DNA of 64,000 bases from an uncultured Bacteroidota bacterium (GCA_963808245.1 CAWEES010000002.1:706252-770251); one strand, 5' to 3'. Positions 4,888-42,815 are shown, counted from the stretch's first letter. The notes: generated by a model not told the origin, from the sequence alone. Made by a program: numbers and translations.

Positions 4888-4916
4888 AAAGGGATAAGAA
4901 AAGGATTAGTTCTCTT
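4888..4916 (-). repeat. GGATGAAA hairpin module, copy A (degenerate)
   Basis: + strand AAAGGGATAAGAAAAGGATTAGTTCTCTT, 117 nt upstream of the kaiC start. The core is ATAAG instead of ATGAA. Confidence 0.4.
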
Positions 4917-5024
4917 GGATGAGATCGGGATCAATATGAACGCGGTGGAACAGGGAGCTACGCGGCATTAAATAATAAATTAACGGCTACTCTCTAAAAT
5001 GACCTGCGAACTACTGTTGGCGCC

Positions 5025-5567
5025 TTAGTGTCTGGTTCGTACGCTTTTTTGCCTGTTATCTTTTTTCCCGGCATTTCCATTGTTTCTTTTATCTCCACCG
5101 CTGTGCTTACCTTTGTCGTGTTGCTGTTGCTGCAGCCAGTCTTTATGCTGGGGGTGGTCCTTGTTTGCAAAATATTTTGGATCCCGGCTATCGCGGATTA
5201 CCTGCTGATCGTGACGGCCTTTATACGAGGCATATCTTTCCCTATACATTTCATTATTTCGCCACGGTTCCCGATCATTTACCACTACTTTATAAGAGTG
5301 ATATAAGTCAAAATCATGGAAACGTGCCGGCAGAGATGAGCTGTAAATCCAACGCCCACCATCACTATAGTAATAACGATGTTGAGGAACATTGTAGTAA
5401 ATATCGATATCCGGGAAATAATAATTTTCGACACGGTCATAACCGGTAGGACCCCAAACCGGTTGAGTAGCTATGTTTAAGTTGACACGAACACGTACCT
5501 GTGCATCTGAAGTACTCGATGCGCTCGACAAGGATAGTGCTACGATTAATACCAAAAAATAACGCAT
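5025..5567 (-). CDS. Secreted hypothetical protein (aromatic-rich core, basic/polar tail)
   Basis: 180 aa. N-terminal signal peptide (MRYFLVLIVALSLSSASS). Core QPVWGPTGYDRVENYYFPDIDIYYNVPQHRYYY. I cannot name a family. Confidence 0.6.
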   Translation of the reverse strand: MRYFLVLIVALSLSSASSTSDAQVRVRVNLNIATQPVWGPTGYDRVENYYFPDIDIYYNVPQHRYYYSDGGRWIYSSSLPARFHDFDLYHSYKVVVNDREPWRNNEMYRERYASYKGRHDQQVIRDSRDPKYFANKDHPQHKDWLQQQQHDKGKHSGGDKRNNGNAGKKDNRQKSVRTRH

Positions 5568-5741
5568 AATGTTTTTCCTGTCTTTTTTGCTGGCCCATCC
5601 ATCTATAGTCGAGATGGGCAGTGCTCATTTAACTAATTGTTGATCCTTGAAATACTTTTGCTTAAGCCGATGTATAATTATTAAATCATCAAAAGAAGCA
5701 TCTGCTATCTTAAAAAACATACTAATGAATGGCATGGAAGA

Positions 5742-5781
5742 GAATCGACCGAAAGGATGAAAGAGTAGTTAATCCTCTTTT
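5742..5781 (-). repeat. GGATGAAA hairpin module, copy B
   Basis: + strand GAATCGACCGAAAGGATGAAAGAGTAGTTAATCCTCTTTT. Stem AGGAT/ATCCT. A TATGTT (-10-like, minus strand) lies at 5716-5721. The module is 175 nt upstream of the 5567 start. Confidence 0.6.
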
Positions 5782-5914
5782 GTTCACCGGATGAGAACGA
5801 CGGTCTATTATTGAAAAGTGAAAATGATTGCTGCTGCTATTTTTATATTAACTACTTCTTTGATGAATAATACGACGATAGCATACTACATTGTGAAATG
5901 TATCGCTCGCTTTT

Positions 5915-6550
5915 TCATCGTTCAGAAGCGATGATACCCCGCCGTGTCAATTCCGACATAACAAGCTTGACGATTCCCGGCCGGACTGTGTGTGCTGAAT
6001 TTGGCTCGGGGGTCTCGCTCGTAGCACTCCAAATCAATTGCCCTTCATTCTTAGTCATCCATACATCAATGGCTCGAAAATCGACTTTTTGAGAATCGAT
6101 GTACGCGGCGTGCGCTATATTCCCATAATATGTCATAAATCTATCATCGCGTGGATTATATCTCGAGTCCTGTTCTTTCGTCACATCCCCCCTCAGGTTT
6201 TCCGTCGTCATTTCCGGAGGAAGCCAGCGGTTAACCAGGATTCCGTCGAAGCCATCCGATTGCACGGCCTGGATAACCTGGTTTGTATCCGGTAGAGTAT
6301 CCGGGAACAGGAGATACGAAGGGGTTGCATCAACATCATGTTTTGCAAGCTCAACACTGAAAGCATCTTCCCAAAGGCGGCGCGGTCCGGGCTTCTTGCC
6401 GACGGAAATAACAAGAATTTTCTTCAGAGAAGGAGTTTGAATTGATGAATCGCTCCATACTTTAACAAGTTCCGATGATGAACACCCAGCCATCAGGGCG
6501 AAGAATAAGGAGAGAACTCCTCCGATAACGAAAGCTTTATATGATTTCAT
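5915..6550 (-). CDS. Lipoprotein, hypothetical
   Basis: 211 aa. Lipobox-like signal (LFFALMAGCSSS). Confidence 0.6.
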   Translation of the reverse strand: MKSYKAFVIGGVLSLFFALMAGCSSSELVKVWSDSSIQTPSLKKILVISVGKKPGPRRLWEDAFSVELAKHDVDATPSYLLFPDTLPDTNQVIQAVQSDGFDGILVNRWLPPEMTTENLRGDVTKEQDSRYNPRDDRFMTYYGNIAHAAYIDSQKVDFRAIDVWMTKNEGQLIWSATSETPEPNSAHTVRPGIVKLVMSELTRRGIIASER

Positions 6551-6677
6551 AGTGCTACCTTCTTTTCCACTTCGTGAGAATGACGGCTACTACTTTTTCT
6601 TGTGAAGCATTTCCAATTGTGCCAGGAATACCGACCGCACGGATGACCACATTAATCCCCTCACCAAGAGAGCTTAA

Positions 6678-7802
6678 TTATGGCATCTTCAAAACTGTAG
6701 ATGTCTTGGCATCTTCTTCCCAGCATTCCCAGCCGGAATGGCTGAGTTTGTTTTTAAGACGGCCAAATTGCGGAGGGCGGTACAATATGTACACTCCGTC
6801 GCTCATACCGGGTCGCACATAGGCCGAGTCTTCTGCGCAATCACAGTGGTCAGCCGGAGGCGCAAATCTATCTTTCTCGAGTAATCTCAAAGTTTCGCTG
6901 TAGACGCTGTCAACGCTCCACAGATACCCCTGCACACGATTCACATCGTACACCGCAACGGTGACCGATGTTTGCACATCATGCTCTAAGCGATCAAAGG
7001 CTTCCTGAGCAAATTTCCCTGCAAATATTGGTACATCCTCTCTTGTAAGCCGGGTATTAAGATTCTCCAGTGAACCGAGATAAAAATATGACAGGTGAAG
7101 ATTGTCGGGAGACGCGACGATATAGCGCGCGTAAGGAGAAAGAGCTGCAACGGAATACGGCGTACCGTTAAAGCACGTAGAGAGTATCAACAAGTCAAAC
7201 TTCGAGGAGCCCTGTGTAATTGCCCCCAATGCAGCAGCAAGATTGTGGATCGTGAATTCCCTTTCGGGATAAGATGCGTCGTACCCTTGCCCCCCGTATT
7301 CCGGAATTTCGTGACCAAAATAGAGGAACAACTTTATTAAGTTGCGAGGAGTTTGTTCCCGTGAACGATCATACAGTTCCACTTCAGTCTTGAAATCTCC
7401 GTTCCCACGCCAGTATGATTTTTTAGTTATTAAGGATCCGTTGCGATAATAATAAAATTCCCCATCGGGGAGCGGGAAGAAAAACAGAAGGTGTCTCCTC
7501 GTTTTCTCATGAAAAATAAACACTTCGGCATTTGGATTTTTTTGGGCTATCTTCGTCGCAGCAGCAAGAGTGTTTTCGTCCGCCTGAATTTCATTACCGT
7601 TTCGATCATGATAAAGGTAATCCCCATCGCCATGGATGATAAAGATCATTGAATACACGAGCGTCGGCGCAACTGCGGGAGGACTGATGTCGTAAATCGA
7701 TCCACATGAACACAAGAATGCCACTGCCAGGCAGCAAATTATTCCCGCGGAGCTTTTAGCTGCCACTAAGAATTGTCTGGTCTGCCGGCGTCGCATCTTC
7801 AC
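6678..7802 (-). CDS. Putative clan CD (clostripain/C11-like) cysteine peptidase, lipoprotein
   Basis: 374 aa. Signal peptide with Cys (AFLCSCGS). A His-Gly and Cys dyad context like C11 peptidases (LYFGHEIPEYGG ... LLILSTCFNGTPYSVAALSPYARYIVASPDNLH). The family call is tentative. Confidence 0.4.
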   Translation of the reverse strand: MKMRRRQTRQFLVAAKSSAGIICCLAVAFLCSCGSIYDISPPAVAPTLVYSMIFIIHGDGDYLYHDRNGNEIQADENTLAAATKIAQKNPNAEVFIFHEKTRRHLLFFFPLPDGEFYYYRNGSLITKKSYWRGNGDFKTEVELYDRSREQTPRNLIKLFLYFGHEIPEYGGQGYDASYPEREFTIHNLAAALGAITQGSSKFDLLILSTCFNGTPYSVAALSPYARYIVASPDNLHLSYFYLGSLENLNTRLTREDVPIFAGKFAQEAFDRLEHDVQTSVTVAVYDVNRVQGYLWSVDSVYSETLRLLEKDRFAPPADHCDCAEDSAYVRPGMSDGVYILYRPPQFGRLKNKLSHSGWECWEEDAKTSTVLKMP

Positions 7803-7819
7803 AGGTCTAAGTCGAAAAA

Positions 7820-8257
7820 TTAGTGTACGATCAGCACAACGAGAAGAATTATCAACAGTAATGTGACAACACTGATCGTGATATATTGCGAAGCCTGTTC
7901 CGTATCCTGCACAACATAATCGGCAAAATTATTCAACTTCTGATCCGGCACACGTTCGAAGCCGTTACGGCCTGCAAGTTCGTCCTGCTTTTCAATGAGA
8001 GTGGATTCGAATCGCTTAATCCCGGTTTTGTCCTTTTCGGAGACGAGTGGAGAATTCTCCGCGATTTCCAACGCTTTCGACATCTTGTTCAATGAGCTAT
8101 TCAGTATCTCACGTTTCTCCGCCGGATTTGTAGCTGCCTTCACTTTCATTGCGGCACTGTTAAAGAAATTCTGCAGGTCACTTCTTTCTCCGGATATAGC
8201 CGGACCAGCTATGACAAACATGGCGACAACAATCGCAAAAATCGTTCGTACTTTCAT
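7820..8257 (-). CDS. Hypothetical protein with signal peptide and C-terminal TM anchor
   Basis: 145 aa. N-terminal signal (MKVRTIFAIVVAMFVIAGPAISG). C-terminal hydrophobic helix (ITISVVTLLLIILLVVLIV). Lies 17 nt upstream of the C11-like gene. Confidence 0.55.
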   Translation of the reverse strand: MKVRTIFAIVVAMFVIAGPAISGERSDLQNFFNSAAMKVKAATNPAEKREILNSSLNKMSKALEIAENSPLVSEKDKTGIKRFESTLIEKQDELAGRNGFERVPDQKLNNFADYVVQDTEQASQYITISVVTLLLIILLVVLIVH

Positions 8258-8332
8258 GACATTCTCCTGATTTGAGTGGAATATTTATTTGTTATTTAAC
8301 TGAAGAAGTATACCGATGATTCATAGGAAAGG

Positions 8333-8369
8333 GAATCGCCCGAAGGGATGAAAGAGTAATTAATCCCTA
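8333..8369 (-). repeat. GGATGAAA hairpin module, copy C
   Basis: + strand GAATCGCCCGAAGGGATGAAAGAGTAATTAATCCCTA. Perfect 6-bp stem AGGGAT/ATCCCT with a 13-nt loop. A TATACT (-10-like, minus strand) lies at 8307-8312, 50 nt before the 8257 start. Confidence 0.65.
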
Positions 8370-8565
8370 TTAGTTCGCTAGAAGATTGCTTAGATACATT
8401 GCATAGAAAGTCGGTGAGACGCGCGGCAGGCGTTCCTCTTTGAGGAGGGTCAAACTTTTAGAAGTTACTCCACCTGTTCAACTCCAGGTGCTAAACATAT
8501 TTTGTCAGCGAACGGCGCGCGGTGTCTTGTGAGAGGTAATCTTTTTCGTTTTCCAAATCATCAGA

Positions 8566-9492
8566 CTATTTCCGTAGTGCCGCCAATTTTTTGAAGAGCT
8601 CTATTTCTTGTTCCGTAAGATGGTTCGGCACTTGGATGACGACTTTGACAAAGAGATCTCCGAAGTCCATCTTCTTGCCATAGACCGGCATTCCGAGTCC
8701 CCGTAGTCGGAGCTCCCTGCCGTTCGGCGTCCCCTTCGGAATATTGACTGCGACTTTGCCTTTCGGTGTTTTTATCTGAGTCTTTCCGCCAAGGACGGCA
8801 GTGTACAATTCAACGGGAAGGTCACATTGAAGATCGTTTCCTTTCCTCTGAAATTCCGGATGCGGCCCAATCTTTATGGTAAGGTAGAGGTCGCCGTTTG
8901 GGCCCCCATTTAAGCCGCTCCCCCCTTTGGTCGGAATCCTCAGAGTCTGCTGATCTGCGACCCCCGGTTTGATCGTCACTTTAATCGTTTGACCGTCGAG
9001 CTTGATGAGCCTTGTCGTGCCATGATATGCCTCTTCAAGCGAGAGGATGGTCTCTGTTTCAAAATCCTCGCCTTTGACGACAACGTTCCCTCTTCCACGC
9101 TGCCGGCTGGCCCGTTGTCCAAACAACGTCTCAAAGAGATCGTCGATGCTGATATCGCTAAATGCCGTATCAGGGTCACTCGTTCCCGTCCGGCGTGTTT
9201 TCCCGCCGCGAGCACTTGCATACTTCGACCAATCAAATCCTCCCGGTTGTGCACCGGCTTCTTCGTAATGTTTCCAATCCGCACCGAACTCATCGTACTT
9301 TTTCCGTTTCACCGGATCGCTGAGGACTTCGTTCGCCTCGTTGATGTCCTTGAACTTCTCTTCAGACGTTTTGTCTCCCTTGGTCTTGTCGGGATGATAT
9401 TTCTTGGCAAGCGTTCGATATGCCTTCTTTATCTCTGCAGGCGTTGCTGTCTTTCCAACTCCCAAAACATTGTAATAATCTTTATAGATCAT
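8566..9492 (-). CDS. cbpA: J-domain co-chaperone, CbpA-type DnaJ (no zinc-finger domain)
   Basis: 308 aa. J domain ([32 protein letters not shown]). No CxxCxGxG repeats. DnaJ C-terminal beta domains are present. Confidence 0.88.
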
Positions 9493-9542
9493 AACCTCGC
9501 CCTTTTGTGTTCATGCCCCGATTCCACCAGATAAGATGATTA

Positions 9543-10040
9543 TCATTCGGCCACTCGTACTTGTGCCGTACGTAGTAATTCATTGTTCCAGAAATAGCCG
9601 CGGCGCAGCTCACCGACAACTATTCCCGGTTCACTACCCTCATGCCTCGTCATCGCTACGGCTTCATGCAAATTATGGTTGAACGGTATGCCGATGCTTA
9701 CAAATGGAATGACTCCATGCGATTCCAGGAGTGAAAGAATTTTTTTATGGATATTACGCACTCCCCGCTCGAACGGTTCTTTTTTACCGCTTGCCCACCG
9801 CATTGCATTCTCCAAATCGTCGATGATGTCCAGGAGTGGGAGTATAATCTCGCGCTTCCCTTCCCCGGCAAGCTTAGTGCTGTCACGCTCAACGCGGCGA
9901 CGATAATTGCTAAAGTCCGCAAGTGTACGAAGTGTCCGGTCACGCTCATTTATTAGCTCTTCTTGCAGCTTTTGTATTTCTGCCGACCAATTAGCCGGCG
10001 GCAGGATGTTCTGGTCGTTCTCATGTATCAGTATTTCCAT
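9543..10040 (-). CDS. grpE: Nucleotide exchange factor GrpE
   Basis: 165 aa. GrpE signature region (RTLADFSNYRRRVERD ... HEAVAM). Directly upstream of the J-protein gene. No dnaK in the window. Confidence 0.9.
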   Translation of the reverse strand: MEILIHENDQNILPPANWSAEIQKLQEELINERDRTLRTLADFSNYRRRVERDSTKLAGEGKREIILPLLDIIDDLENAMRWASGKKEPFERGVRNIHKKILSLLESHGVIPFVSIGIPFNHNLHEAVAMTRHEGSEPGIVVGELRRGYFWNNELLRTAQVRVAE

Positions 10041-10079
10041 GGTACTCCTATTTTACTATTCTTCAACTAACTTTCACAA
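9956..10079. repeat. 124-bp direct repeat, copy 1 (grpE 5' end, leader, and 17-nt remnant of an oxidoreductase 3' end)
   Basis: Aligned by eye to 29161..29284 with ~7 mismatches and no gaps. Covers grpE codons 1-28, the 22-nt leader, and the sequence ATTGTGAAAGTTAGTTGA (IVKVS-stop). Confidence 0.85.
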
Positions 10080-10349
10080 TTGATATTCTCAAGTCGATCC
10101 CTTGTGTCTTGCTTGTTATTTAACACCCTGTTCGTTGTTGTTGAATTACGGATACAACAGACTTAAAACATCTCACATCCGGTATTCTGGTTTGTCTCCT
10201 GGCCATGGAGACTTGTCTGTTAATCTGCTGTTTCACACTATCCCGATTCGCGACTCTATACGTTCTCAGGAAATGATAAATCTTACGGTTTGAACCGTTT
10301 AACTGACCTATCACCACTATTTATGATACAACTATATCGACCGTAAAAT

Positions 10350-10387
10350 CAATCGTGCTAAGGGATGAAAAAGGGATTACCTCTTTG
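10350..10387 (-). repeat. GGATGAAA hairpin module, copy D
   Basis: + strand CAATCGTGCTAAGGGATGAAAAAGGGATTACCTCTTTG. The right stem arm is degenerate. A TATCAT (-10-like, minus strand) lies at 10323-10328. The module is 310 nt upstream of the grpE start. Confidence 0.55.
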
Positions 10388-10435
10388 AAGTGAACCCGCA
10401 GTTCGCTGCTGCTGACGCCTTACCTGCTGCGCATT

Positions 10436-11707
10436 TTACTTGTTTGTCAGTTGCAGATAAATCAGCGCAAAAGCGGCAACGCTCATTGATATTAGCGTTA
10501 TCGATCCAAGAACATTTGACCATCTTTTGTTCGTAAATTTCCCCATTACTTTTTTGTTGTTAGAAATGTGTATAATTATGGCAATCATCACCGGAGCTGT
10601 TAAGCCATACAAAACAGCAGTGTAAATAAGCGCTTGTATCGGACTTATGCCTAGAAAATCCAGAGACAACCCGATTATGAGTGATACGATAAGCGTGATG
10701 TAAAAACCTTTGGCATCATGAAATTTTCTATCCAGCCCTTCCTTCCAATTAAAAGTCTCAGCTAAAATATAGGAAAGTGAGCCGGCTAAGACAGGTATCG
10801 CTAAGAACCCTGTGCCAATTATACCGACAGCAAAGAGCAAATAAGTAAGTTTGCCTGTCAATGGCTCTAATGCTTTTGCGGCTTGTCCTACCGTATCAAC
10901 TTGCCTGATACCTGCCCGATACAATACAGCGCCCGTTGTAAGGATTATGAAGAACATAACCAGGTTTGAAAACAACATCCCGAAATCGATATCCATTTTC
11001 ATGTCGTCCAAGATATGCTTGTTGATTATGATTTTCCTACGGTTATGTGAAATGTCTTCTGCTTCCATAGTGGCTTGCCAAAAGAACAAATAAGGAGAAA
11101 TCGTGGCGCCAAGAATGGCAACAAGTATCTCGAAAAAATTCCTACTGAAAAGAATAGTCGGGACAAAAGTACTTTTCATGACTTCCAACCAATCCGCATG
11201 TACAAGAAACGGAACTATGACATACAAAAGCAACGAAAGGCAAAGCCATTTCAGCACCACAGCAAGTTTTTGATATGGAAAATTGATAATAAAGAAAATA
11301 AGTACGAATGTAAAAAATGTGCTGAAGGCAAAAGATGGAATTTGATGTATAAGTAAATTGGCAACGGCTCCCATTCCCTGAATGTCGGCGCCTATATTGA
11401 GCGTAATAGCTGGAAAACTAAACACAGCCATTAGATATAAAATGGTTTTCGGATATTTCTTTTTTACAATTCCCGTCAATCCCTCCTGCGTTACCATACC
11501 GATTCGTGCGCTCATCTCCTGCATCGCAGCCATAAGAGGAAAAGTAATGACCGCAGTCCAAAGAGCTGCAAAACCAAAACCGGCACCCGCCTGCGAATAG
11601 GTTGCAATCCCTGAAGGATCATCGTCGCTTGCGCCTGTAATAAGTCCGGGACCGAGTATGTGCCAGTATCTTTTAATTCTTGTTAAAAGCATCGTGGGTA
11701 GATTCAT
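10436..11707 (-). CDS. Nramp-family divalent metal cation transporter
   Basis: 423 aa, ~11 TM helices. N-terminal Nramp motif GPGLITGASDDDPSGIATYSQAGAGFGF. Confidence 0.85.
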   Translation of the reverse strand: MNLPTMLLTRIKRYWHILGPGLITGASDDDPSGIATYSQAGAGFGFAALWTAVITFPLMAAMQEMSARIGMVTQEGLTGIVKKKYPKTILYLMAVFSFPAITLNIGADIQGMGAVANLLIHQIPSFAFSTFFTFVLIFFIINFPYQKLAVVLKWLCLSLLLYVIVPFLVHADWLEVMKSTFVPTILFSRNFFEILVAILGATISPYLFFWQATMEAEDISHNRRKIIINKHILDDMKMDIDFGMLFSNLVMFFIILTTGAVLYRAGIRQVDTVGQAAKALEPLTGKLTYLLFAVGIIGTGFLAIPVLAGSLSYILAETFNWKEGLDRKFHDAKGFYITLIVSLIIGLSLDFLGISPIQALIYTAVLYGLTAPVMIAIIIHISNNKKVMGKFTNKRWSNVLGSITLISMSVAAFALIYLQLTNK

Positions 11708-11882
11708 TACAGATAGGCTTTCACCGCTTGTTGTTATAGCTCTTTATTTGCCATGATTCTTTCTCCAGATCAGTTCGAAACAATTTTTAGGATTAATTTT
11801 CATCTTCATTCTTTCGGTTATGTCAGCAGTGTTGTTCCCGTCTGTTTATTCATAGGGTTCAGATTTAGGCTCGACTTCGGCT

Positions 11883-14609
11883 TCATCTTTTCGGCTTTTC
11901 CTGCTCCGCCTGCTCCCAGTCCTGAACTGCCCTACCGTCTTTGCGACCTCGTTCTTCGTAGATTTCATAGGCACGCTTAGCGATCTGCGACTTCAAATCC
12001 GAAGGAGTCTCTGACTTGGCTTCAGGCTTGTCCCCAGCTTTAGCTTCGAGTTTGTCGTCAGTTTTGATTTCAGTTTTGGTTTCGGCTCGGGCTTTGACTT
12101 CGGGCTTAGCCGCGGCTTTGGTGTGATCGAAAATCCGGTACGCGAGCAGTTTCACGCGGTCATTCAAGAGGAACCACAGCAGCGCATATCCCCATACGAA
12201 CCCGGCCCAACCCCAGCCCAATGGTGTCATAAACATTCCGTAAACCGCTATCAACGTCGCCACAATTTGAGTGCCGAGCACTGCCACCCATAAAATCTTT
12301 GCCGGGCGAATAGACCAGAACGGGCGTCGCGTGCGCGTGAGAAAGATCGTCAGATGTCCGGCAACTGACAGCTTCAGGTACATCAGCGTCTGGATGTGCG
12401 CGCGATCGAGATGAAAGACGCGCTCACCGAGATAAAACAAGGCGAATGCGGAGACGACCCCGATGATGCCCAGCACCGTGGAGATCCCCAGCACCATGCG
12501 CATGTTCCATGCCTCGGGCTTATCCTTGTAATGAACGTTATCGTATGCAATGGACAGGATGGCGCCATCGTTGAGCAGCGCCAGCATCACGATCATCACA
12601 GCAGTCAGCGGATAGAAATTAAAGATCAGGATCGACAGCGTCATGAAGAACAGCACACGCAACGTTTCGGAGATTCGGTAGATCGCGTAGCTATTCATCC
12701 GCTGGAAAATTTTCCGGCTCTCCTTGATCGCGTCGATAATCACCGACAAGCCGGGCATCGTCAGCACGATAGACGCCGCCGCGCGCGCCGCGTCAGTCGC
12801 GTCCGAAACGGCGATGCCGCAGTCGGCTTTCTTCAGCGCAGGTGCGTCATTCACGCCGTCACCGGTCATGCCGACCATGTGACCCAGCTTTTGCAGGACA
12901 TCCACAATATGGAACTTGTGTTCGGGGAACACTTGAGCGAAGCCATCGGCCTTTTCAATGGACTTGGCCACGTCTGTTGTCTCTTCTTTTTTCGAGTCGC
13001 CCAGGCTGGCGGCCTCGAGGATGTTCGTGCCCATGTCCAACTTCTTGGCGGTTTCCTGGGCGATGGCCAGTGCATCGCCAGTGACCATCTTGACCTTAAC
13101 ACCCATCGCTAGTGCGGTCGCGATAGTTGCCTTTGCATCTTCCCTTGGCGGATCGAACAAGGGTAAAACGCCAACAAACTGCCATAGGCCGTCTCCTTCA
13201 GCCCGCGCCACGCCCAACGAACGAAAACCACGAGCGGCAAATTCGTTGACAGCCTTCTCGATGGCAGGCTTCAGCTGTCCGGCATTGGCCGCCAATTTCA
13301 AAATCACCTGCGGCGCACCCTTCGTGACCTTGAACGTCTTTCCGTCTTTTCCTTTGACGGTGGCCTCGGTGCGTTTATGTACCGGGTCGAACGGCTGGAA
13401 ATGAACCACCTCGTACGACTTCAGTGAATCTTTGTCTTTCAGTCCGGCCAGAACTGCAAGATCAATGGTGTCGTTATTGTCCGTACGCGACGCCAGCGCA
13501 CCGTTGAGGATGACTTGATCGGCGGGGAGATTGTCCACACCGAACGGATCGCCCAGCGTCAACTTATTTTGGGTCAAGGTTCCGGTCTTGTCCGCGCACA
13601 GCACATCGACCCCTGCCAGTTCCTCGATAGCCACCAGCTTACTCACGATTGCTTTTTTCCTTGCGAGCAGGCGCGCCCCGACCGCCATGGTCACCGATAA
13701 TACTGTCGGCATCGCCACGGGAATCGCGGCAACGGTCAGTACCAGAGCGAACTGCAACGTCGAGAGGATCGGATCGCCGCGGAGTATGGCCACGGTAATA
13801 ATCACCGCCACCAGAGCTACCGCAAGGATGATCAGGTAATTGCCGATCTTCATAACCGCCTTTTGAAAGTGACTGACGGTGTGCGCCTCTTGAACCAACT
13901 GCGCCGTCTTGCCGAAGTATGTGTTCGCACCCGTGGCATAGACAAGCGCGCCGATTTCGCCGCGTCGAACGATCGAACCTGAAAACACCGCCTCGCCGGA
14001 TTTGCGCTCGGCGGGCAACGACTCTCCCGTCAGCGCCGACTGATCAACCTCCACCGAATCACCCTCCAGCAGGCGCGCATCAGCCGGCACAATGTCACCC
14101 AGGCGCATGCGTATGACATCGCCCGGCACCAGCTCACGCGCCGCCGGGTTGACCCACTTCCCATCACGTTTCACTCTGGCCTTGACTGCCAGCTTGGCTT
14201 TGAGGGCTTCGATGGCGTTGCCTGCCTGGCGTTCTTCCCAAAATCCGACCACAGCGTTTGCGAGAAGCAGAAGGAGGATAATAAAAAAATCCGGCCAGTG
14301 CCGAACCACGGCGGACAGTATCACCGCAATCTCGATCATCCACGGAATGGGGCCCCAGAAATAGGTGAGGAATTTCAGGAGCGGACTTGTTTTCTTTTCT
14401 TCAATCTCGTTTGGCCCGTATTGGGTCAGCCGCTTCTCCGCCTCGGCTTGAGTGAGGCCGTCCGGGGATGATTCTAATTTTCTCTCCACCTCCGAAATGG
14501 GAAGAGATTTCAGATCATCCTTGATTTCAGGCTTTGCTCCGTCCTTGGCATCGGGTTTTGACCCCCGCTTCGATTCGGGAGCCTTTGGATCATCGGTATT
14601 TGAATTCAT
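11883..14609 (-). CDS. P-type ATPase, plasma-membrane H+-ATPase (P3A) type, with C-terminal DUF2934-like domain
   Basis: 908 aa. Motifs DKTGTLTQNKLTL, MVTGDALAIAQETAKKL, GDGVNDAPALKKADCGIAV. The N-terminal region resembles PMA/AHA pumps (GLTQAEAEKRLTQYGPNEIEEKKTSPLLKFL). K/E/D-rich tails at both ends. The terminal IAKRAYEIYEERGRKDGRAVQDWEQAEQE matches the DUF2934 pattern. Confidence 0.85.
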   Translation of the reverse strand: MNSNTDDPKAPESKRGSKPDAKDGAKPEIKDDLKSLPISEVERKLESSPDGLTQAEAEKRLTQYGPNEIEEKKTSPLLKFLTYFWGPIPWMIEIAVILSAVVRHWPDFFIILLLLLANAVVGFWEERQAGNAIEALKAKLAVKARVKRDGKWVNPAARELVPGDVIRMRLGDIVPADARLLEGDSVEVDQSALTGESLPAERKSGEAVFSGSIVRRGEIGALVYATGANTYFGKTAQLVQEAHTVSHFQKAVMKIGNYLIILAVALVAVIITVAILRGDPILSTLQFALVLTVAAIPVAMPTVLSVTMAVGARLLARKKAIVSKLVAIEELAGVDVLCADKTGTLTQNKLTLGDPFGVDNLPADQVILNGALASRTDNNDTIDLAVLAGLKDKDSLKSYEVVHFQPFDPVHKRTEATVKGKDGKTFKVTKGAPQVILKLAANAGQLKPAIEKAVNEFAARGFRSLGVARAEGDGLWQFVGVLPLFDPPREDAKATIATALAMGVKVKMVTGDALAIAQETAKKLDMGTNILEAASLGDSKKEETTDVAKSIEKADGFAQVFPEHKFHIVDVLQKLGHMVGMTGDGVNDAPALKKADCGIAVSDATDAARAAASIVLTMPGLSVIIDAIKESRKIFQRMNSYAIYRISETLRVLFFMTLSILIFNFYPLTAVMIVMLALLNDGAILSIAYDNVHYKDKPEAWNMRMVLGISTVLGIIGVVSAFALFYLGERVFHLDRAHIQTLMYLKLSVAGHLTIFLTRTRRPFWSIRPAKILWVAVLGTQIVATLIAVYGMFMTPLGWGWAGFVWGYALLWFLLNDRVKLLAYRIFDHTKAAAKPEVKARAETKTEIKTDDKLEAKAGDKPEAKSETPSDLKSQIAKRAYEIYEERGRKDGRAVQDWEQAEQEKPKR

Positions 14610-14651
14610 GATATGGCTTCTTTTGAGGTTTTGAATTTTCGGAACCAGGCG

Positions 14652-15761
14652 CTACACCTTTGCTCCCGGCGGGTCGGCGACTTTTCCCGGCGGCAGGATT
14701 TCCGGCACGTCAAGACGTGCCACACCGATCCGGTTGTCAGCCATCCCGTAATAAACATCGAAGCGATCAGGTAAGCCAAGGTCGTCACGCCGGTCGATGC
14801 CGGTTGGGAACACAACGTTAGCGATGGTTCCACAGCGTTCTTGCGGCAGCTCCGGCATCAACACAGGTTCCGTCGAACGATAGCGGATCTCGCGCGGATG
14901 CTCCTCCGAAAGAACCATCACCCCTGCAGAGTAGCATAGTTGGCAACCGTCGCTGCCCGGCTCCGCCATTTTACTTACGCCATGGTACAGGATCATCCAG
15001 CCGTGCTTGGTTAGAATGGGCGGAGTGCCACCGCCGATTTTTAGCCGTTCCCACGGCGATACCGGACTTGCCAGCCGATGATGCGAATTGAACAGGCCAG
15101 GACGATGCGGCACCAGACCTTTGGGCGGCATTGGACAATAAGAAATCCAGATGCTTTCATGCTCGCGATCCACTACCCGGGATTCGGCCTGAGAGGCGGT
15201 TTCTTCGGGATGGGTGCCGGGAAAAAGCGGACGATGGAGAAGGGCCAACTGCATCTTCCCGGCGTGATTGGGAATTGCGACGGGAAAGATGCTGGCATCC
15301 TTGTTGTCCACATGGACGAAATCAATGTCTTGAAAAGGCTCAAAGGTCGCCAACCCGATCCGCTCCCAGTGGAACAAATCCTCCGACATCGCCAGGGCAA
15401 TTCGGGGTCCGCTCGGCGAAAGCGCCGTATAAGTCATGACGTAATGTTGGAGCGGTTCGACAAAGGTAATGCGCGGATCTTCACAGCCGCCGCTGCCGTC
15501 AGATCGCCGCTCATAATCAGCTTCCGGCTCGATCGCAATGCCGAGCCGTTCGACTCCGATCGGGTCACCGGCTTCGTTGAATTTTACACGGGCAATGCCG
15601 ATACGTGAATAATTGCCGCGGGCGACGAGCCGTGGGAACAGGTAAAGTTTGCCGTCAGGACCGCGAGCGGCAGCCGGGTTCAGGACTCCTTCGACCTCCA
15701 TTGGATTCCCCGGCTCCGGCTCCATCAACATTCCGAGGCGCTGCAACTGGAAGCCGCTCAT
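14652..15761 (-). CDS. GH130-family glycoside phosphorylase/glycosidase (beta-mannoside phosphorylase-like)
   Basis: 369 aa. N-terminus typical of GH130/DUF377 (GVLNPAAARGPDGKLYLFPRLVARGNYSRIGIARV). The start overlaps the upstream gene stop by 4 nt. Confidence 0.7.
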   Translation of the reverse strand: MSGFQLQRLGMLMEPEPGNPMEVEGVLNPAAARGPDGKLYLFPRLVARGNYSRIGIARVKFNEAGDPIGVERLGIAIEPEADYERRSDGSGGCEDPRITFVEPLQHYVMTYTALSPSGPRIALAMSEDLFHWERIGLATFEPFQDIDFVHVDNKDASIFPVAIPNHAGKMQLALLHRPLFPGTHPEETASQAESRVVDREHESIWISYCPMPPKGLVPHRPGLFNSHHRLASPVSPWERLKIGGGTPPILTKHGWMILYHGVSKMAEPGSDGCQLCYSAGVMVLSEEHPREIRYRSTEPVLMPELPQERCGTIANVVFPTGIDRRDDLGLPDRFDVYYGMADNRIGVARLDVPEILPPGKVADPPGAKV

Positions 15762-16540: not shown

Positions 16541-16544
16541 TATA

Positions 16545-17872: not shown

Positions 17873-17915
17873 TTGTTCCCTTCACTATTGATACCTTCCC
17901 GGACGGTGTCGATGC

Positions 17916-31381: not shown

Positions 31382-31485
31382 TTTACATTTCCTTCTATAA
31401 AATTAGTATGGGTTTTATATTCGTATCGTACTTCCTGATGGGCAAGATAAGAGCATTACTCATCTGTTTATCAAGCAACATTAGA

Positions 31486-31668
31486 TCAACCTATGCCGCC
31501 TTCAGTCTGATCTGCCAGGTATTTCTCAATACTGATTTGTGCTTTCCCGTCAAAGCGTATCCAGCTTAATGCGACGATGCTCGCCATAACCTCGGTGCCG
31601 AAGAGGGGGAAATAGACCAGTAGGACACTCGACCTGACGACGAACAATGTATTAGATGTCGTGTTCAT
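31486..31668 (-). CDS. Hypothetical 60-aa protein (only the C-terminal part of track ORF 31486..31818)
   Basis: The ATG at 31668 lies 68 nt downstream of the -10-like box of module F. The upstream part of the track ORF runs through the module itself and is unlikely to be coding. No family recognised. Confidence 0.25.
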   Translation of the reverse strand: MNTTSNTLFVVRSSVLLVYFPLFGTEVMASIVALSWIRFDGKAQISIEKYLADQTEGGIG

Positions 31669-31770
31669 GAGACTAATATCCTTTGGGGTCTCTCTTATTA
31701 GTCGACAATTTATCCTGGGACCAGTACTATGATTAACTGTACCAACATCGGAAGAAAAGTGAGGCTGGTA

Positions 31771-31808
31771 AATAGGCCAAAAGGATGAAAAGAGAGCTAC
31801 ATCCTTCT
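31771..31808 (-). repeat. GGATGAAA hairpin module, copy F
   Basis: + strand AATAGGCCAAAAGGATGAAAAGAGAGCTACATCCTTCT. Stem AAGGAT/ATCCTT. About 95 nt, including the downstream box TTGGTACAGTTAATCA (31736-31741 = TACAGT), aligns with copy G. Confidence 0.6.
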
Positions 31809-31946
31809 CTCTAACCAAATGATCGGAGAATTACCGAAAGTTCTCTATCCTTGTTGATTTTAAGAACAGTTCATGATCAATTAGACCTCTTAGTTTCTAA
31901 TCCGTTTCTGACCGGCGAACCTTGAGGATAACGTTGACTTAACTTC

Positions 31947-35473: not shown

Positions 35474-36553
35474 TCACTTCATGAGAATCATCTTCTTGAT
35501 GGAAACGAATGATCCGTCATTCAGACGATAGAAGTATAAACCGCTTGCGAATTTGCTGCCGTCGAACGTAGCTATGTGTGTACCCGCCGTCTGTTGACCT
35601 GCAAATAATGCGGCAACTTTCTCACCCAAAACGTTGTAAACATTCAATGTCATAAACCCGTTCTGTGGAACCGAGTAGTTGATCTGTGTTGTCGGGTTGA
35701 ATGGATTCGGGTAGTTCTGCGAAAGTGAGAAGTCTGCCGGCGCAGATACATGTTCTTTGACAGCAGTCACTACTCCTGGATCTGTAACCGCATTGGCTTC
35801 TAATGTAATTGCGGTCTGTGCCAACGCTTTGCCTTCTAATGTTGCACCGGTATTCAGGGCGATCAACGTTTGACACAGTATATCTCCTTTGAAGTCAGCT
35901 GTTGTTCCGATCGTTACTTTACCGGCGACCTGCCAGAAGATGTTCTTAGCCTGTGCGCTGCCAATCATGACTTTCATGCCGTTGGATTCGGTGAGATTTC
36001 CTGATATCTGGAATATCCAGACATCATTTGCTCCACCGCTGAGAGTAACATTCGTCGAAATCGTTACATTGGTCGTCCACTTATATAGGCCGGGAACAAG
36101 AGTCTGCCCGCCCATTTCGCCAGCACCGACATTCAAAAACGTTCCGGTAGGTATCGGTGTTCGTCCTGCAGCGTCGGTGTACGCAGTTTGCATGTCACCT
36201 ATGGCCGTGGTCAGGTTCGCGGGGCTTGGCACTGCATAGTTTGATGCATATATCTTTCCGGTTACCGCACTCGATGTCGCAAACACATTCGTCGCATCCG
36301 CTATCAATGAAAATCCAGTAATGAATGTTGCGGCGGCTGGACTAATTCCGATGTTGCCGGTAATCGCGGTGGTCCCCGTAGTCGAGACTCCCGTTTTTGC
36401 CAGGATGACGAAATTCCCGGCTGTCTTAAGATTTACTGGCAATTGTTGTGAAATAGCAACTGCATTCACGATTAAGACAGTTGCCAACATTAAGCCGAAA
36501 AGGCGGCCCCATTCGGTTAACGTATTTGTCAAATTTTTAGTATGAATCTTCAT
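35474..36553 (-). CDS. Ice-binding-like protein (DUF3494) with T9SS C-terminal sorting domain
   Basis: Start moved to the ATG at 36553 (MKIHTKNL..., signal peptide). DUF3494 core LKTAGNFVILAKTGVSTTGTTAITGNIGISPAAATFITGF ... NDVWIFQISGNL ... AKNIFWQVAG. C-terminus NYPNPFNPTTQINYSV...GLYFYRL is typical of T9SS type A tails. Confidence 0.85.
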   Translation of the reverse strand: MKIHTKNLTNTLTEWGRLFGLMLATVLIVNAVAISQQLPVNLKTAGNFVILAKTGVSTTGTTAITGNIGISPAAATFITGFSLIADATNVFATSSAVTGKIYASNYAVPSPANLTTAIGDMQTAYTDAAGRTPIPTGTFLNVGAGEMGGQTLVPGLYKWTTNVTISTNVTLSGGANDVWIFQISGNLTESNGMKVMIGSAQAKNIFWQVAGKVTIGTTADFKGDILCQTLIALNTGATLEGKALAQTAITLEANAVTDPGVVTAVKEHVSAPADFSLSQNYPNPFNPTTQINYSVPQNGFMTLNVYNVLGEKVAALFAGQQTAGTHIATFDGSKFASGLYFYRLNDGSFVSIKKMILMK

Positions 36554-36700
36554 AAGGTTATCCTTGTGGTCAATTGGTTTGACCTGTTTTATTGAGTCGT
36601 TTATCCCAACTTGAGTTGACACGCCAGTCCGGCGTGACAACTCAGATGGAAGATTATTTTTGTACTTGAACATTTCTTGTTGAGTTTTCATGAAAGGTTA

Positions 36701-37981
36701 TTACTGAACGAAGAATTCCATTCGTCGATTCTCTGACCGGCCTTCATCGGTTTTGTTCGAGGCTATGGGTTCGTTTTCGCCTCTTCCGATAGTTCTCATG
36801 CGGTTAGATGCGATGCCTTCACTGACGAGCCAATTCTTTACTGCCTGCGCACGCTTCAATGAAAGTACTTGATTGGATTTCTCGCTTCCCACATTGTCCG
36901 TATAGCCGGTAATTACTACCCTCACACCAGGATTTGCGACCATTGCATTGAAGGCTCTCATTAATATAATCTCTGAACCATCCGTGAGCGTCGTCTTGTT
37001 GGACGCGAAATTGATGCCTCTAAGAATGACGGTCTTTCCTTTAATAAGAACGATAAGGGTATCACGATTCTTTTGTTCCGACAACGCCAATGTTGCTGCA
37101 TTGGTCGAATCTTTCAGGCGCAGCGTCTCTGCGGTCGCCGCGTTAGTTGAATCCTTTACATTCGTGGCCGCTACCATTGCATTGGTTGAATCCTTAACAT
37201 GTGCCGCCGCTGTCGACGCGCTGGTCGAATCTTGTATACGCCTCGCCTCAGCCACGTTGGCTTCCTTCACACGTAACGCCTCTGATGCCGCATTGGTCGA
37301 GTCCTGTACATGTTGTGCCAAGGCAGTGTTTGCTGCATTTATACGATTAGCCTCTACGGCCGCATCGGTAGAATCCTTTACACGTTGTGCTTCCTCCTCG
37401 TCCGCGTTATTATCACCAAGACTAAATGCAAGCCCCAGAGAAAAAGCAAAGAATCCGTCTTCTTTGTTATTCGTGACAGAGTTTAAGTTAGAATTCGATC
37501 GCGTCTGTCCGTTTAATTGATCCGAAAGGGACAAATCATATCCGCCGCTAACTTGCAGCATGAGTCCGCTGTTGATTCTGCTTTGAATACCGATACCGAT
37601 CGGAACCATCGGTAAAAAATTCGAGTTGCCAATGTTTAGGGTTTTAGATAGACCTAAACCTGCATAAAGGAACGGGTTCAAATTTGGTAATGAAAAAGGA
37701 ACGTAGAGTAATCGGAGGTCGGCCATAAGGACCTGTGCCGAGTACGAAGGCGCGTTGAGATCGGTGTAGCCCACACCAACCTGGCCCAGTAGAGCGGACA
37801 TGAATTCATGTTGAAAATACCCGCGATACTGCATCACCCATTTATCACCGGGGGCGTTATCTCCCTGAGCGCCGCCCATTGAAACACCCCATGCGTTCAC
37901 AGGGTCCTTGAACTGGGCTTGAACCTGGCTATACCCCACAAGGGTCATAACCAACATTGAACATACAATAAACTGTTTCAT
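36701..37981 (-). CDS. OmpA-family outer membrane protein with internal KDSTNA repeats
   Basis: Start moved to the ATG at 37981 (MKQFIVCSMLVMTLVGYSQVQAQ). N-terminal beta-barrel-like region. C-terminal OmpA domain (ITGYTDNVGSEKSNQVLSLKRAQAVKNWL...NRRMEFFVQ). Confidence 0.85.
   Translation of the reverse strand: MKQFIVCSMLVMTLVGYSQVQAQFKDPVNAWGVSMGGAQGDNAPGDKWVMQYRGYFQHEFMSALLGQVGVGYTDLNAPSYSAQVLMADLRLLYVPFSLPNLNPFLYAGLGLSKTLNIGNSNFLPMVPIGIGIQSRINSGLMLQVSGGYDLSLSDQLNGQTRSNSNLNSVTNNKEDGFFAFSLGLAFSLGDNNADEEEAQRVKDSTDAAVEANRINAANTALAQHVQDSTNAASEALRVKEANVAEARRIQDSTSASTAAAHVKDSTNAMVAATNVKDSTNAATAETLRLKDSTNAATLALSEQKNRDTLIVLIKGKTVILRGINFASNKTTLTDGSEIILMRAFNAMVANPGVRVVITGYTDNVGSEKSNQVLSLKRAQAVKNWLVSEGIASNRMRTIGRGENEPIASNKTDEGRSENRRMEFFVQ
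37076..37390 (-). repeat. Degenerate tandem repeats inside the OmpA-family CDS
   Basis: Six copies of the motif [VLI][KQ]DST[NDS]A across aa 211-315. At DNA level GCATTGGTCGAATC-like units recur. Confidence 0.7.
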
Positions 37982-38066
37982 CTGGAACCTCTCTTTGATT
38001 ATAAGTTGCTTCGTGATCACTTCAGTGATTCACTGTACCAAAGTAGAACGGAACATGAGGCGGGCA

Positions 38067-38103
38067 AATAAGACAAAGGGATGAAAAGGGAGCTAGACCC
38101 TAT
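38067..38103 (-). repeat. GGATGAAA hairpin module, copy G
   Basis: + strand AATAAGACAAAGGGATGAAAAGGGAGCTAGACCCTAT. Stem AGGG/CCCT. A TACAGT box lies at 38033-38038, 52 nt before the 37981 start. Confidence 0.6.
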
Positions 38104-38303
38104 GGCTAAGTAATCTCGAAAAAATCCTGATTTTCTCGAGTGAGCCAATTGTTACTGGCTAAGTCTGCTATAAAGTGGTACACCTGTAGATATGTTAGAT
38201 TGGATTTTAGAGGTACATCAGAGTACACTGGGCCATTGAAAAAATAAATAGATCATGAATCACACAAAGAACGATACGACAAGAAGTAAATGGCAGAGAT
38301 AGT

Positions 38304-40879: not shown

Positions 40880-41049
40880 GCTATACTCCTCTTTTGGAAA
40901 TGTTGCCTAACGCCCTGACAACCTAAATATTTCGACTAGTAAAACTCAAGAAAAACTCGTTGATCACGGGAACCGAAGGTAGAACAGACCCCAGACCATT
41001 CAGGAGTTTCACCCCCGAAAGCGATTACCTAATAGACAAAATCCCGAGA

Positions 41050-42671
41050 TCAGCGACCGGATCTGCCGGCGCGCTGCGCTTTCCTCTCTTCCACATATTC
41101 CGGTACTAAGACGGGTTCTCCGACCGATACTTTCGCGGCCCGACTATTTTCAGCTTTGAGGTAAGCGTTAGGATCGTGGTACATCGCTCCCGCCGGAAGC
41201 CAGTCCCACAATGGACCTAGATCTTTTCTCACCTGGTCCGAATAAAAAGTCGGGAGTTTCGTTGTCTCTTGTTCGTAGTAACGCCGGAACTCCTTATCGG
41301 CCTGCAACAATCGCCGTACTTCGGTGAAGTATTTAATTCTCCCAAACCCTTCCGAGGAAATCGCCCTAACTACATTCATCAAGCGCGGCTTAATCGCTCC
41401 GTTCGCTCTGAATCGGTTGATGATGGCCTTCGTGGTGAACGTGTACTTCGTTAGGTCAATGACATTGTCATAAAACTCGGTCCAGGAATAATTCTTCGGC
41501 TTCACATTCATCGCGTGATTATTATCCAGGAAGTGGAACGGGAACGGCAGGACATGGTTGGCTCGTTGGTATTCCAAATTCAACGGCGCCGCTTGCCCGA
41601 AGGCCGAAAGGAGCGAGTAACCGGGAAAGGCGCCCGGGGCCATATCCAGAAATCTTTTGGTAAGCTCGAAAGGTTCGGAGCCCTCATCCGTGTCGAGCCC
41701 CAACACGAAGTTGGTCTGTATGTAAGGAATGTAATGCAGGATCATGTTTACATGTTCGGAAACTCGGTCGACCTTGGATATCCCGGAAATTCCATTTGTC
41801 TTGGACTTACCCCCCAACTCGTACCATGATTCAATTCCGGGGAGCAAAGCTTTGAAGCCGTTTCGTTTCATCCTTTTCAGATGTGGTTCGGATAACAACG
41901 AGAGGCTGCTCTCGGCGATAAAGTCTATTCTGTCTGGCGGCACCGCATCCTCGATGGCGTTCATGAAATCGTCGAACCTTATCCCGAAATTTGGATCATG
42001 CCATCCGACAAGAGGACGTTTGAATTTCTTCAAAAGAAACGAAAGGTCTTCCTTAAGTAAATCGAAATCGAGAGCCTGGTAAGGTATAACCGAATCTATG
42101 CAGAAGCTACAAGTGTAGGGACATCCAAGGCTTCCGATCATCGGAACAAGTTTTATCAGTGGTGCCTTTTTGAGTGTCGACTCGATAAACTTCCAACGCT
42201 CCTGGACCCGGGGAGCGAGTTGGGTTGCTGCTTCGCAGTGATGTGCAAGCCAAGTGGCCTGTGCTGCGAGCAATCACCAAGCACTTCCTGAATGACATCT
42301 TTATCGGTAAGTCCAACCACATAGTCAAAATACTTTTGCGCATCCTGCGGGTAACAACGTGCATGCGGACCGCCAAGTACGGTGACCGCACCGCGTGACC
42401 GGAATAAGTTGCTCAACGCGTATGCGGTCTGCGCGGCCTCACTGAAGGCGCCGATGAAGACTATATCGACATTTTCGGGAAGCTCGTCGACCAGGTTCTC
42501 AAAACCCGTATAGCATACAAATGTGACGTCGTGTCCGAGCTCTTCACACCATACTCCAAGAACCTGCGGCATTATGCTTGCAAAGTTTGCGTACATCACA
42601 CGTGCCCACAATGCCTTTGTTGGTCCCTTTGTTACGAGATCGATTATTCCTATCCGCAGCTTACGTTTCAT
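41050..42671 (-). pseudogene. B12-binding-domain radical SAM protein, split by a -1/+1 frameshift
   Basis: The N-terminal part (42156..42671) has a B12-binding-like Rossmann layout. The C-terminal part (41050..42273, other frame) has CPYTCSFC (CX3CX2C). The frames overlap at 42156-42273. One extra C in the C4/G3 run at 42207-42213 would give a continuous ...AKQQPNSLPRVQERWKFIE. Confidence 0.7.
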
Positions 42672-42796
42672 ATGAGGTCCTACTATTGTTCTTTCATTCT
42701 TGGAATTATTCTCAAAGGAAAGAATAGGCTCTTTTGTTCCTCTTACCTTTTCGCCAGCAGAAAAAATATAGAATCCGATTTCAAGATAAAATCGGT

Positions 42797-42815
42797 CAAT
42801 GGAACTAATCCTTTA
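42797..42815 (-). repeat. Partial GGATGAAA-module right arm (copy H, fragment)
   Basis: CAATGGAACTAATCCTTTA resembles the AAGGAACTAATTCCTTT part of copy E. The GGATGAAA core is absent. Confidence 0.25.

Follow-up and report, generated by a model that had tools for sequence, protein, structure and literature searches.

A conserved block upstream of a sigma70-type core promoter that probably serves a general-stress-type gene set including kaiC-kaiB in Ignavibacteria and relatives

A 64,000-nt stretch of DNA from an uncultured Bacteroidota bacterium (GCA_963808245.1, CAWEES010000002.1:706252-770251; "the window" below means this whole stretch) carries one repeated sequence in front of genes as different as kaiC, grpE and an alcohol dehydrogenase (ADH) gene, which raises the question of what this repeat is and which protein might read it. 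An earlier note on the window had offered two readings, a promoter with an activator or operator site joined to it and a structured 5' RNA element. The first of these was borne out by the fixed phase of the repeat to a core promoter, by its orientation and by the recurrence of the same gene families behind it in many genomes. We consider it probable, from comparison of sequences, that the element is a promoter DNA site, most likely bound by an activator of the NarL/LuxR type and driving a general-stress-type regulon, and that it is not an RNA.

A Repeated Element in the Window and in Related Genomes

When the repeat was written on the gene strand as a 29-nt pattern, TANNNNYYYTTTCATCCYTTNGNNNNATT, and searched with at most two mismatches, the window gave seven matches, all seven on the minus strand, and 100 dinucleotide shuffles of the window gave none, with 0 expected by chance. 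A position weight matrix (PWM) built from the copies recovered the same seven and no other site above threshold. The repeated element around the 8-mer GGATGAAA is real, and its seven copies comprise six strong ones (B-G) and a degenerate one (A), as the earlier note had it; the gene calls also agree with its statement that all copies are intergenic and lie upstream of minus-strand genes. The 8-mer itself, which the note had singled out as invariant in the six strong copies, is not distinctive by itself: taken alone it is weakly enriched (12 matches against 4.8 expected, a count reached by 1 of 100 shuffles), and half of its matches, three on the plus strand and all three on the minus strand, fall within genes. 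At the six intergenic plus-strand matches the likeness extends far past the 8-mer. An inverted relative that had been proposed on the plus strand at 11789-11817 fell short of the PWM threshold and points toward a gene's 3' end, and it was excluded from the copy count.

All large genes of the window are on the minus strand, so that the orientation of the copies within it has little value as proof, and orientation was therefore examined outside the window. A motif scan of one genome per GTDB species gave at least 119 loci (the locus counts below are among the matches listed), with about 17 chance hits expected from a rough calculation based on the information content of the pattern. Nearly all of the listed loci belong to metagenome-assembled genomes (MAGs) of Ignavibacteria, Ignavibacteriales or Melioribacteraceae, some of them loosely labelled 'Bacteroidetes', and further ones were found in Caldithrix (L039, three copies), Zixibacteria (L033 and L037), Kryptoniota (L042) and a Gemmatimonadaceae MAG (L023). 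A few archaeal and Firmicutes hits are intragenic, have no flanking signature and were taken as chance. In many loci two to four copies, pointing the same way, lie within 8 kb. The window codes for a type IX secretion sorting domain, and its response regulator (see below) has a 100% identical counterpart on a 3.73-Mb contig; with this spread of the motif, an Ignavibacteria-type genome is likely for the window.

Promoter Geometry and Gene Orientation

The anatomy of the element was derived from 155 pattern-selected instances aligned on an invariant TA, the T being position 0, and from a second set of 197 PWM-selected instances. The gene-strand consensus is cCAAAAGATG-TAGTTCCTTTTTCATCCCTTTGnnCGA, which can be laid out as cCAAAAGATG TAGTTCC TTTTTCATCC CTTTG nnCGA. 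The block contains invariant C12, C15, C16 and G21, and C5 and C6 are conserved at about 80%; among the 155 instances, conservation extends to columns that the pattern left unconstrained, namely cCAAAA at -9 to -5, G at -4 (86%), C24, G25 and G29. Further downstream, the same set shows two sharp peaks, at +50/+51 with TA (81% for either base) and at +55 with T (86%). Of the 197 PWM-selected instances, 153 have TAnnnT exactly at +50, and 174 have it no more than 1 nt away. Positions +27 to +30 read TTGA, in which the unselected columns, G29 (66%) and A30 (47%), complete the tetranucleotide, and purines are enriched at +62/+63 (70% at +62; n = 197). These features point to a core promoter of the sigma70 type, with a -35 hexamer TTGAnn that is often poor, a 17-nt spacer, a -10 hexamer TAnnnT and a predicted start about 7 nt later; the conserved block of about 42 bp would then occupy about -77 to -36, directly upstream of the -35 hexamer, and would not be transcribed.

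In four LuxR-type regulator genes (L010, L074, L077 and L082) the ATG falls at +61 to +63, which is the predicted start and lies 6-7 nt past the -10 hexamer, as in the sequence TATAAT-TTTATC-ATG of L082. Because a start codon cannot precede its transcript, these genes should give leaderless mRNAs that begin at the predicted +1, and the block would remain untranscribed from this promoter. Of the 164 downstream genes that could be determined (from 182 instances with enough flank), 151 lie on the motif strand; the orientation bias, for which the earlier note had suggested a check as against a generic repeat, is present. The upstream gene can be on either strand, being co-directional in 123 cases and divergent in 27, and 20 cases are counted as divergent pairs. 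From the predicted start, the first ATG-initiated open reading frame (ORF) of 60 aa or more is reached after a median of 95 nt. The orientation and context therefore exclude both an element of the 3' untranslated region of the upstream gene and a generic dispersed repeat. Five of the seven window copies have a poor -35 hexamer (TTCTCT, TTCCCT, TTTACC or TTTGCC), and a generic sigma70 scan of the window detected copy D as the sole one of the seven, which fits a dependence on an activator.

Several known promoter classes and other elements were tried and rejected. The window bacterium shares its superphylum with the Bacteroidia, as reflected in a type IX secretion sorting domain, and T is somewhat favoured at -10 positions 5 and 7 as in Bacteroidia promoters, but the TTGA-17-TAnnnT geometry differs from that of the Bacteroidia sigma-AB promoter (-33 TTTG / -7 TAnnTTTG), and TAnnTTTG stands at +50 in 6 of 197 instances. 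The extracytoplasmic function (ECF)/EcfG-type promoter GGAAC-N16-17-CGTT occurs in the window at 27664-27688 and 23912-23936 and at no copy, and the GGAAC of the consensus is present on the opposite strand alone. The sigma54 promoter TGGCAC-N5-TTGC has three matches with at most one mismatch in the window (at 1459, 3781 and 63814), none of them at the copies, and the HrcA-bound CIRCE (controlling inverted repeat of chaperone expression) operator TTAGCACTC-N9-GAGTGCTAA, considered for grpE-dnaJ, has no match in the window with up to four mismatches. A FliA-type promoter did not fit by inspection. UP elements, the sites of the C-terminal domain of the RNA polymerase alpha subunit, are A/T-rich tracts at -40 to -60 without invariant G or C; the block has invariant C and G positions. 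A small plus-strand peptide starting at the ATG AAA of GGATGAAA would stop after three codons in copies B and C, and the conservation is not 3-periodic. For an intrinsic terminator belonging to the upstream gene, the stem is both too weak and too AT-rich, and a terminator scan found none at the copies.

Genes Downstream of the Element

A Pfam run on the 150 first downstream proteins gave, as recurrent families, OMP_b-brl (9), Response_reg plus GerE (8-9), CsbD (8), YtxH (7), KaiC (6), AI-2E transporters (6), TSP3 (6) and DUF4382 (5). By eye, bacterioferritin- and rubrerythrin-like proteins, PRC-barrel and SPFH-like proteins, DUF4398-like and glycine-zipper lipoproteins, MlaE-like permeases, B12/radical SAM enzymes and PAS histidine kinases apparently also lie downstream, together with an ECF sigma factor gene in two lineages (L036 and L080). 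The units of the window match the same families, and no ribosomal or other housekeeping family is among the 25 most frequent downstream families. This set resembles a general-stress-type regulon and is akin to the general stress regulons of SigB, EcfG and RpoS. The regulon of clock, chaperone, redox, envelope and cold-related genes that the earlier note had sketched stands as a regulon, but is better termed general-stress-type.

A NarL/LuxR-type Regulator as Candidate Binder

The gene by far most tightly linked to the motif encodes a NarL/LuxR-type response regulator, which in the window lies on the minus strand at 1629-2321 and consists of a receiver and a GerE helix-turn-helix (Pfam and NCBIfam; NarL is its best NCBIfam hit, scoring 130 bits where the cut-off is 250). 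Among the 119 listed motif-selected 8-kb loci (about 867 kb), 27 contain an orthologue of this regulator (43-58% identity), and some contain two; the motif stands directly upstream of ten of these orthologues and immediately behind most of the rest. This adjacency, which gives circumstantial support to the link with the adjacent LuxR-type regulator suggested earlier, holds in the Gemmatimonadaceae MAG (L023) and in a Zixibacteria MAG (L037). At two independent loci selected by the regulator (P0077 and P0033), the motif begins 18-19 nt past the regulator stop codon and heads four co-directional units in the next 10 kb and none in the preceding 10 kb, these units encoding a B12/radical SAM protein, an ADH, a 144-aa protein with a C11 peptidase, and Band_7 proteins and PAS kinases. 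Sigma factor genes are rare beside the motif (about 2 in 150), in contrast to the common LuxR-type regulator. The regulator, being the gene most tightly linked to the motif, is therefore the most likely binder of the block.

KaiC was also considered as the anchor of the motif, and the KaiC of the window scores 737 bits in NCBIfam, above the KaiC equivalog cut-off of 408. Among 80 metagenome loci selected by KaiC, the motif and the regulator orthologue occur together in the Ignavibacteria-like group alone (KaiC at least 76% identical), and both are absent from about 65 KaiC-selected loci of other, mostly high-GC lineages. Since the motif is confined, among these KaiC-selected loci, to the Ignavibacteria-like ones and does not precede every kaiC there, KaiC is to be seen as a member of the regulon and not as the defining partner of the motif. 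Two closely related GC-rich contigs (L130 and L134, G+C 0.66-0.67), which count as a single observation, share the sequence TACGCC..ATTCATCCC.ACG.GGGATCTCCACC about 220-260 nt upstream of kaiC, which has the look of the block in a diverged, GC-rich form. In the window, a small and very basic ORF (2456-2581, minus strand; MSKGQNSKRGSKKEPAKTMKEKKAAKREKKNEKENESVLVK) lies between kaiB and the response regulator gene, and a 41-aa gene is called there in L200-L202.

In the mechanism that we propose, a sequence-specific protein on the block would recruit or stabilise RNA polymerase at otherwise weak promoters and would thereby switch on a general-stress-type regulon. Its members would include kaiC-kaiB, grpE-dnaJ, CsbD, YtxH, OmpA and beta-barrel envelope proteins, and further redox enzymes, AI-2E transporters and the regulator's own gene. 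The candidate binder is the phosphorylated NarL/LuxR-family regulator encoded at 1629-2321, which would activate a housekeeping-type promoter; the geometry of the promoters, their orientation, the make-up of the gene set and its spread among lineages are observed, and both the positive control and the identity of this binder are what we infer.

Several points weigh against this proposal. The link to the regulator is one of guilt by association and is phylogenetically confounded, and a gene that looks autoregulated could equally be the target of another factor. Both sets of instances were picked with the motif itself, which inflates the apparent conservation inside the pattern. Sites of NarL/LuxR-family proteins consist of inverted heptamers (TACYYMT) or of a 20-bp dyad, and the block, being about 42 bp long and strongly asymmetric, is unlike the classical 7-2-7 site of NarL or the 20-bp lux box; a single heptamer, TARYYMY at 0 to +6, presumably resembles a NarL half-site. 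Moreover, two paralogous regulators are found within 8 kb in L045, L047, L074, L082 and L108, and either of them, or a heterodimer, could possibly bind the block. In such pairs one paralogue often stands beside kaiC without a motif of its own and the other is motif-driven.

Alternative Explanations

The earlier note had described a stem with compensatory changes around a conserved loop, and a structured RNA or hairpin in the 5' leader, such as a riboswitch, a protein-binding stem-loop or an attenuator, would agree with the short inverted repeat (GATG...CATC or GGAT...ATCC) held by many copies. Closer inspection did not sustain the stem. Its right arm, CATCC, is invariant and therefore cannot covary, and its left arm exists in two sub-types, ..AGATG|TAG.. 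and ..GGAT|TAA.., that pair with the right arm in different registers, so that a 4-bp stem is formed in register 12 by 39% of the 197 instances, in register 13 by 19% and in neither by 42%. Mutual information, with which the covariation named by the note was checked, revealed no Watson-Crick covariation, the top pairs being neighbouring bases that separate the sub-types. The seven window copies fold weakly and into differing structures (minimum free energies of -3.7 to -9.4 kcal/mol, z-scores of 0.11 to -1.45), and Rfam gave no hit at gathering thresholds for the whole window and none at E<=5 for 4700-10500. Given also that the block lies upstream of the conserved -35 and -10 hexamers, of the predicted starts and of leaderless start codons, we regard an RNA element as very improbable. 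The imperfect dyad CAAAAGATG-N12-CATCCCTTTG, with half-site centres about two helical turns apart around an asymmetric core (TAGTTCC TTTTT), has the appearance of a protein-binding site rather than of an RNA. A dispersed repeat devoid of promoter function, such as a repetitive extragenic palindrome (REP), a bacterial interspersed mosaic element (BIME) or a miniature inverted-repeat transposable element (MITE), might account for the many and clustered copies per genome, but it is scarcely credible in view of the orientation toward the downstream gene, the fixed phase to the -35 and -10 hexamers and the same gene families downstream across phyla, and the copies show neither inverted pairs nor target duplications, nor any similarity outside the block.

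Two further alternatives accept the promoter and differ in the protein that reads it. The whole module could be the promoter of an alternative general-stress sigma factor analogous to SigB, EcfG or RpoS, the block being an extended recognition element or the true -35; the regulon content (CsbD, YtxH, Dps-like and envelope proteins), the motif-preceded ECF sigma gene of L036 and L080 and the often non-canonical -35 hexamers of the window speak for it. We nevertheless find it unlikely: the best-conserved core, TTGA-17-TAnnnT, has a housekeeping-type geometry, the block would have to be a 'spacer' whose conservation exceeds that of any sigma element, neither GGAAC-N16-17-CGT nor GG-N10-GC is found at the copies, and next to the motif it is the LuxR-type regulator gene, not a sigma gene, that is common. 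Alternatively, the same architecture could be bound by a repressor, with the block as an operator that keeps the stress genes off until release. The block does touch the -35 hexamer, and many Ignavibacteriaceae copies have a fairly good -35 (TTGAAT or TTGATT) and -10 and might fire unaided; on the other hand, the block lies wholly upstream of the -35 without overlapping the -10 or the start, which is the usual place of an activator, and the window copies have poor -35 hexamers. Repression therefore also appears improbable to us, and an activator-bound promoter site remains the preferred explanation.

Copies in the Window and Their Predicted Units

All seven window copies, which are on the minus strand together with their units, fit the geometry of a -35 hexamer, a 17-18-nt spacer and a -10 hexamer. 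The degenerate copy A (block at 4882-4923; pattern match at 4880-4908 with two mismatches; PWM score 37.5) is followed by -35 TTGTTT (4876-4881), -10 CATAAT (4853-4858) and a predicted transcription start at about 4846, and its predicted unit comprises kaiC (3020-4771), kaiB (2639-2995) and probably the response regulator gene, by the Pfam matches KaiC, KaiB and Response_reg plus GerE. The other six copies were likewise found by both the pattern and the PWM. Copy B (block 5745-5786, match 5743-5771) has -35 TTCTCT (5739-5744), -10 TATGTT (5716-5721) and a predicted start at about 5709, and should drive the gene of a 180-aa protein (5025-5567). Copy C (block 8336-8377, match 8334-8362), with -35 TTCCCT (8330-8335), -10 TATACT (8307-8312) and a predicted start at about 8300, precedes a putative unit for a 145-aa protein (7820-8257), a Peptidase_C11 protein (6678-7802) and a 211-aa protein (5915-6550); the 145-aa protein recurs 3' of the motif in L087, L117 and L203. 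Copy D (block 10353-10394, match 10351-10379) has -35 TTGATT (10347-10352), an 18-nt spacer, -10 TATCAT (10323-10328) and a predicted start at about 10316, in front of grpE (9543-10040) and a dnaJ-like gene (8566-9492). Copy E (block 28830-28871, match 28828-28856), with -35 TTCTCT (28824-28829), -10 TACACT (28801-28806) and a predicted start at about 28794, precedes a zinc alcohol dehydrogenase gene (27642-28670), and the motif island of L203 likewise holds an ADH.

Copy F (block 31773-31814, match 31771-31799) is followed by -35 TTTACC (31767-31772), -10 GATGTT (31744-31749) and a predicted start at about 31737, and its putative unit encodes an old yellow enzyme (OYE)/FMN oxidoreductase (30263-31381) and an ADH_N_2 (enone) reductase (29268-30278). 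Copy G (block 38069-38110, match 38067-38095), with -35 TTTGCC (38063-38068), -10 TACTTT (38040-38045) and a predicted start at about 38033, precedes an OmpA-family gene (36701-38020, ATG at 37981) and a DUF3494 ice-binding gene (35474-36691). The TAnAnT boxes noticed previously in B-E are real and occupy the -10 position common to the family; in F and G, by contrast, the proposed box TACAGT gives way to GATGTT and TACTTT, respectively, which fit better and lie at the canonical 17-nt spacing and not 27 nt further on. The likeness of F and G that had also been pointed out continues past the block into the first bases predicted to be transcribed (GGTACAGTKAATCA), and this common sequence is consistent with a duplicated promoter.

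The fragment H of the earlier note (42770-42815, minus strand) proved to be real and is a deletion variant reading AAAGGATTAGTTCC joined to ATTGACCGATTT: the left flank AAAGGATTAGTTCC and the right flank TTGACCGATT are both kept, the TTTTTCATCC core of about 11-12 nt, or about one helical turn, is gone, and a TATATT box comes next. Downstream of this fragment is a split B12-binding/radical SAM gene (42156-42671 plus 41050-42273, minus strand), the orthologue of which has a full motif in L203, L205, L047 and L113. Two overlapping ORFs, each in its own frame, encode the B12-binding part (171 aa) and the radical SAM part (407 aa), and the orthologues in L203, L204 and L205 are single proteins of about 445-493 aa; the split, which coincides with the decayed motif, probably reflects a frameshift or pseudogene or else an error of sequencing.

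The predicted 5' leaders before grpE (about 276 nt, 10041-10316) and before the OYE gene (about 356 nt, 31382-31737) are unusually long, and the latter contains a 60-aa ORF. No Rfam match was found in the grpE leader at gathering thresholds or at E<=5, nor in the OYE leader in a scan at gathering thresholds only. The DUF3494 ice-binding-like protein carries a type IX secretion C-terminal sorting domain, and its gene is probably co-transcribed with the motif-driven OmpA-family gene.

Two other regions of the window have no copy of the motif. The GC-rich block at 11.9-25.9 kb (about 11900-25900), noted before as free of copies, is so in the PWM scan as well; it has a G+C content of 0.49-0.565 against 0.41-0.48 in its flanks, opens with a P-type ATPase bearing a C-terminal DUF2934 and may be acquired DNA. 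The region 43329-60590 (minus strand) encodes seven tandem paralogous permeases of about 800 aa (MacB_PCD plus FtsX), adjoined at higher coordinates by two ABC ATPase genes and an HlyD-type adaptor gene (60679-62058 and 62500-63750). A '23S rRNA-intervening sequence protein' (PF05635, bAvd-like) is encoded at 62084-62443 (minus strand) between the ABC ATPase genes and the HlyD gene.

Discussion

There are activator-dependent sigma70 promoters at which the site of a response regulator abuts the -35 hexamer, as with NarL, RcsB, BvgA and LuxR. The element described here is like the promoters of NarL/FixJ/LuxR-type activators in that the block adjoins the upstream side of a weak -35 in a fixed helical phase, and in that a regulator gene, here encoding a receiver and a GerE helix-turn-helix, is itself preceded by the motif and located beside the targets. 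Unlike their sites, the block is strongly asymmetric over its roughly 42 bp, shows a pyrimidine-rich coding strand and is near-invariant across phyla, and it contains neither a 7-2-7 heptamer pair nor a 20-bp palindrome. The downstream genes are like those of SigB in Bacillus, EcfG/PhyR in Alphaproteobacteria and RpoS in Enterobacteria, with CsbD, YtxH, chaperones, Dps- and ferritin-like proteins, PRC-barrel, envelope and OmpA-like proteins and redox enzymes. Those regulons, however, depend on a dedicated sigma factor with its own -35 and -10, whereas here the core is of the housekeeping type and the specificity resides in the upstream block, probably read by a two-component regulator. Although the category, an activator-dependent promoter with its regulon, is familiar, the element itself is apparently undescribed: full-text searches of the literature found no description of it or of a general stress regulon in Ignavibacteria. 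What is unusual is the length and near-invariance of the block across several phyla, and that kaiC-kaiB is both member and neighbour.

KaiBC systems of non-cyanobacteria have been linked to stress resistance (bioRxiv 10.1101/2022.01.26.477890), and the presence of kaiC within a stress-type gene set agrees with this. As in the output pathways of cyanobacterial KaiC (SasA/CikA-RpaA), kaiC-kaiB here stands beside the gene of a DNA-binding response regulator, but this regulator is of the NarL/LuxR type and not of the OmpR type of RpaA, there is no kaiA, and the KaiC homologues of other phyla (59-73% identity) are without the motif. We put forward no more than tentatively that the block is the output cis-element of a non-cyanobacterial KaiBC system, that is, of a Kai-gated and sigma-independent general stress response. 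KaiC and KaiB would, by way of a partner kinase, determine how far the adjacent NarL/LuxR-type regulator is phosphorylated, and the regulator would then bind the 42-bp block and turn on a general stress and dormancy regulon. As this regulon would include kaiC and the regulator gene, a positive feedback loop would result, with Kai as a timer or hourglass, and such a system would extend over Ignavibacteria, Kryptoniota, Calditrichota, Zixibacteria and Gemmatimonadota.

Soils, sediments and wastewater contain Ignavibacteria and their relatives in abundance, and to our knowledge almost nothing is known of their gene regulation. The block provides a phylum-wide marker for one large, general-stress-like regulon and points to one candidate master regulator. 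In MAGs, promoters and leaderless genes can be annotated with its help, and it assigns to the stress regulon many small proteins of unknown function, such as the 145-aa, 180-aa and 211-aa proteins of the window. Because kaiC-kaiB and the regulator gene are both members of the regulon and neighbours, the role of KaiBC homologues in non-photosynthetic bacteria becomes directly testable, with one protein, one DNA site and a defined set of genes.

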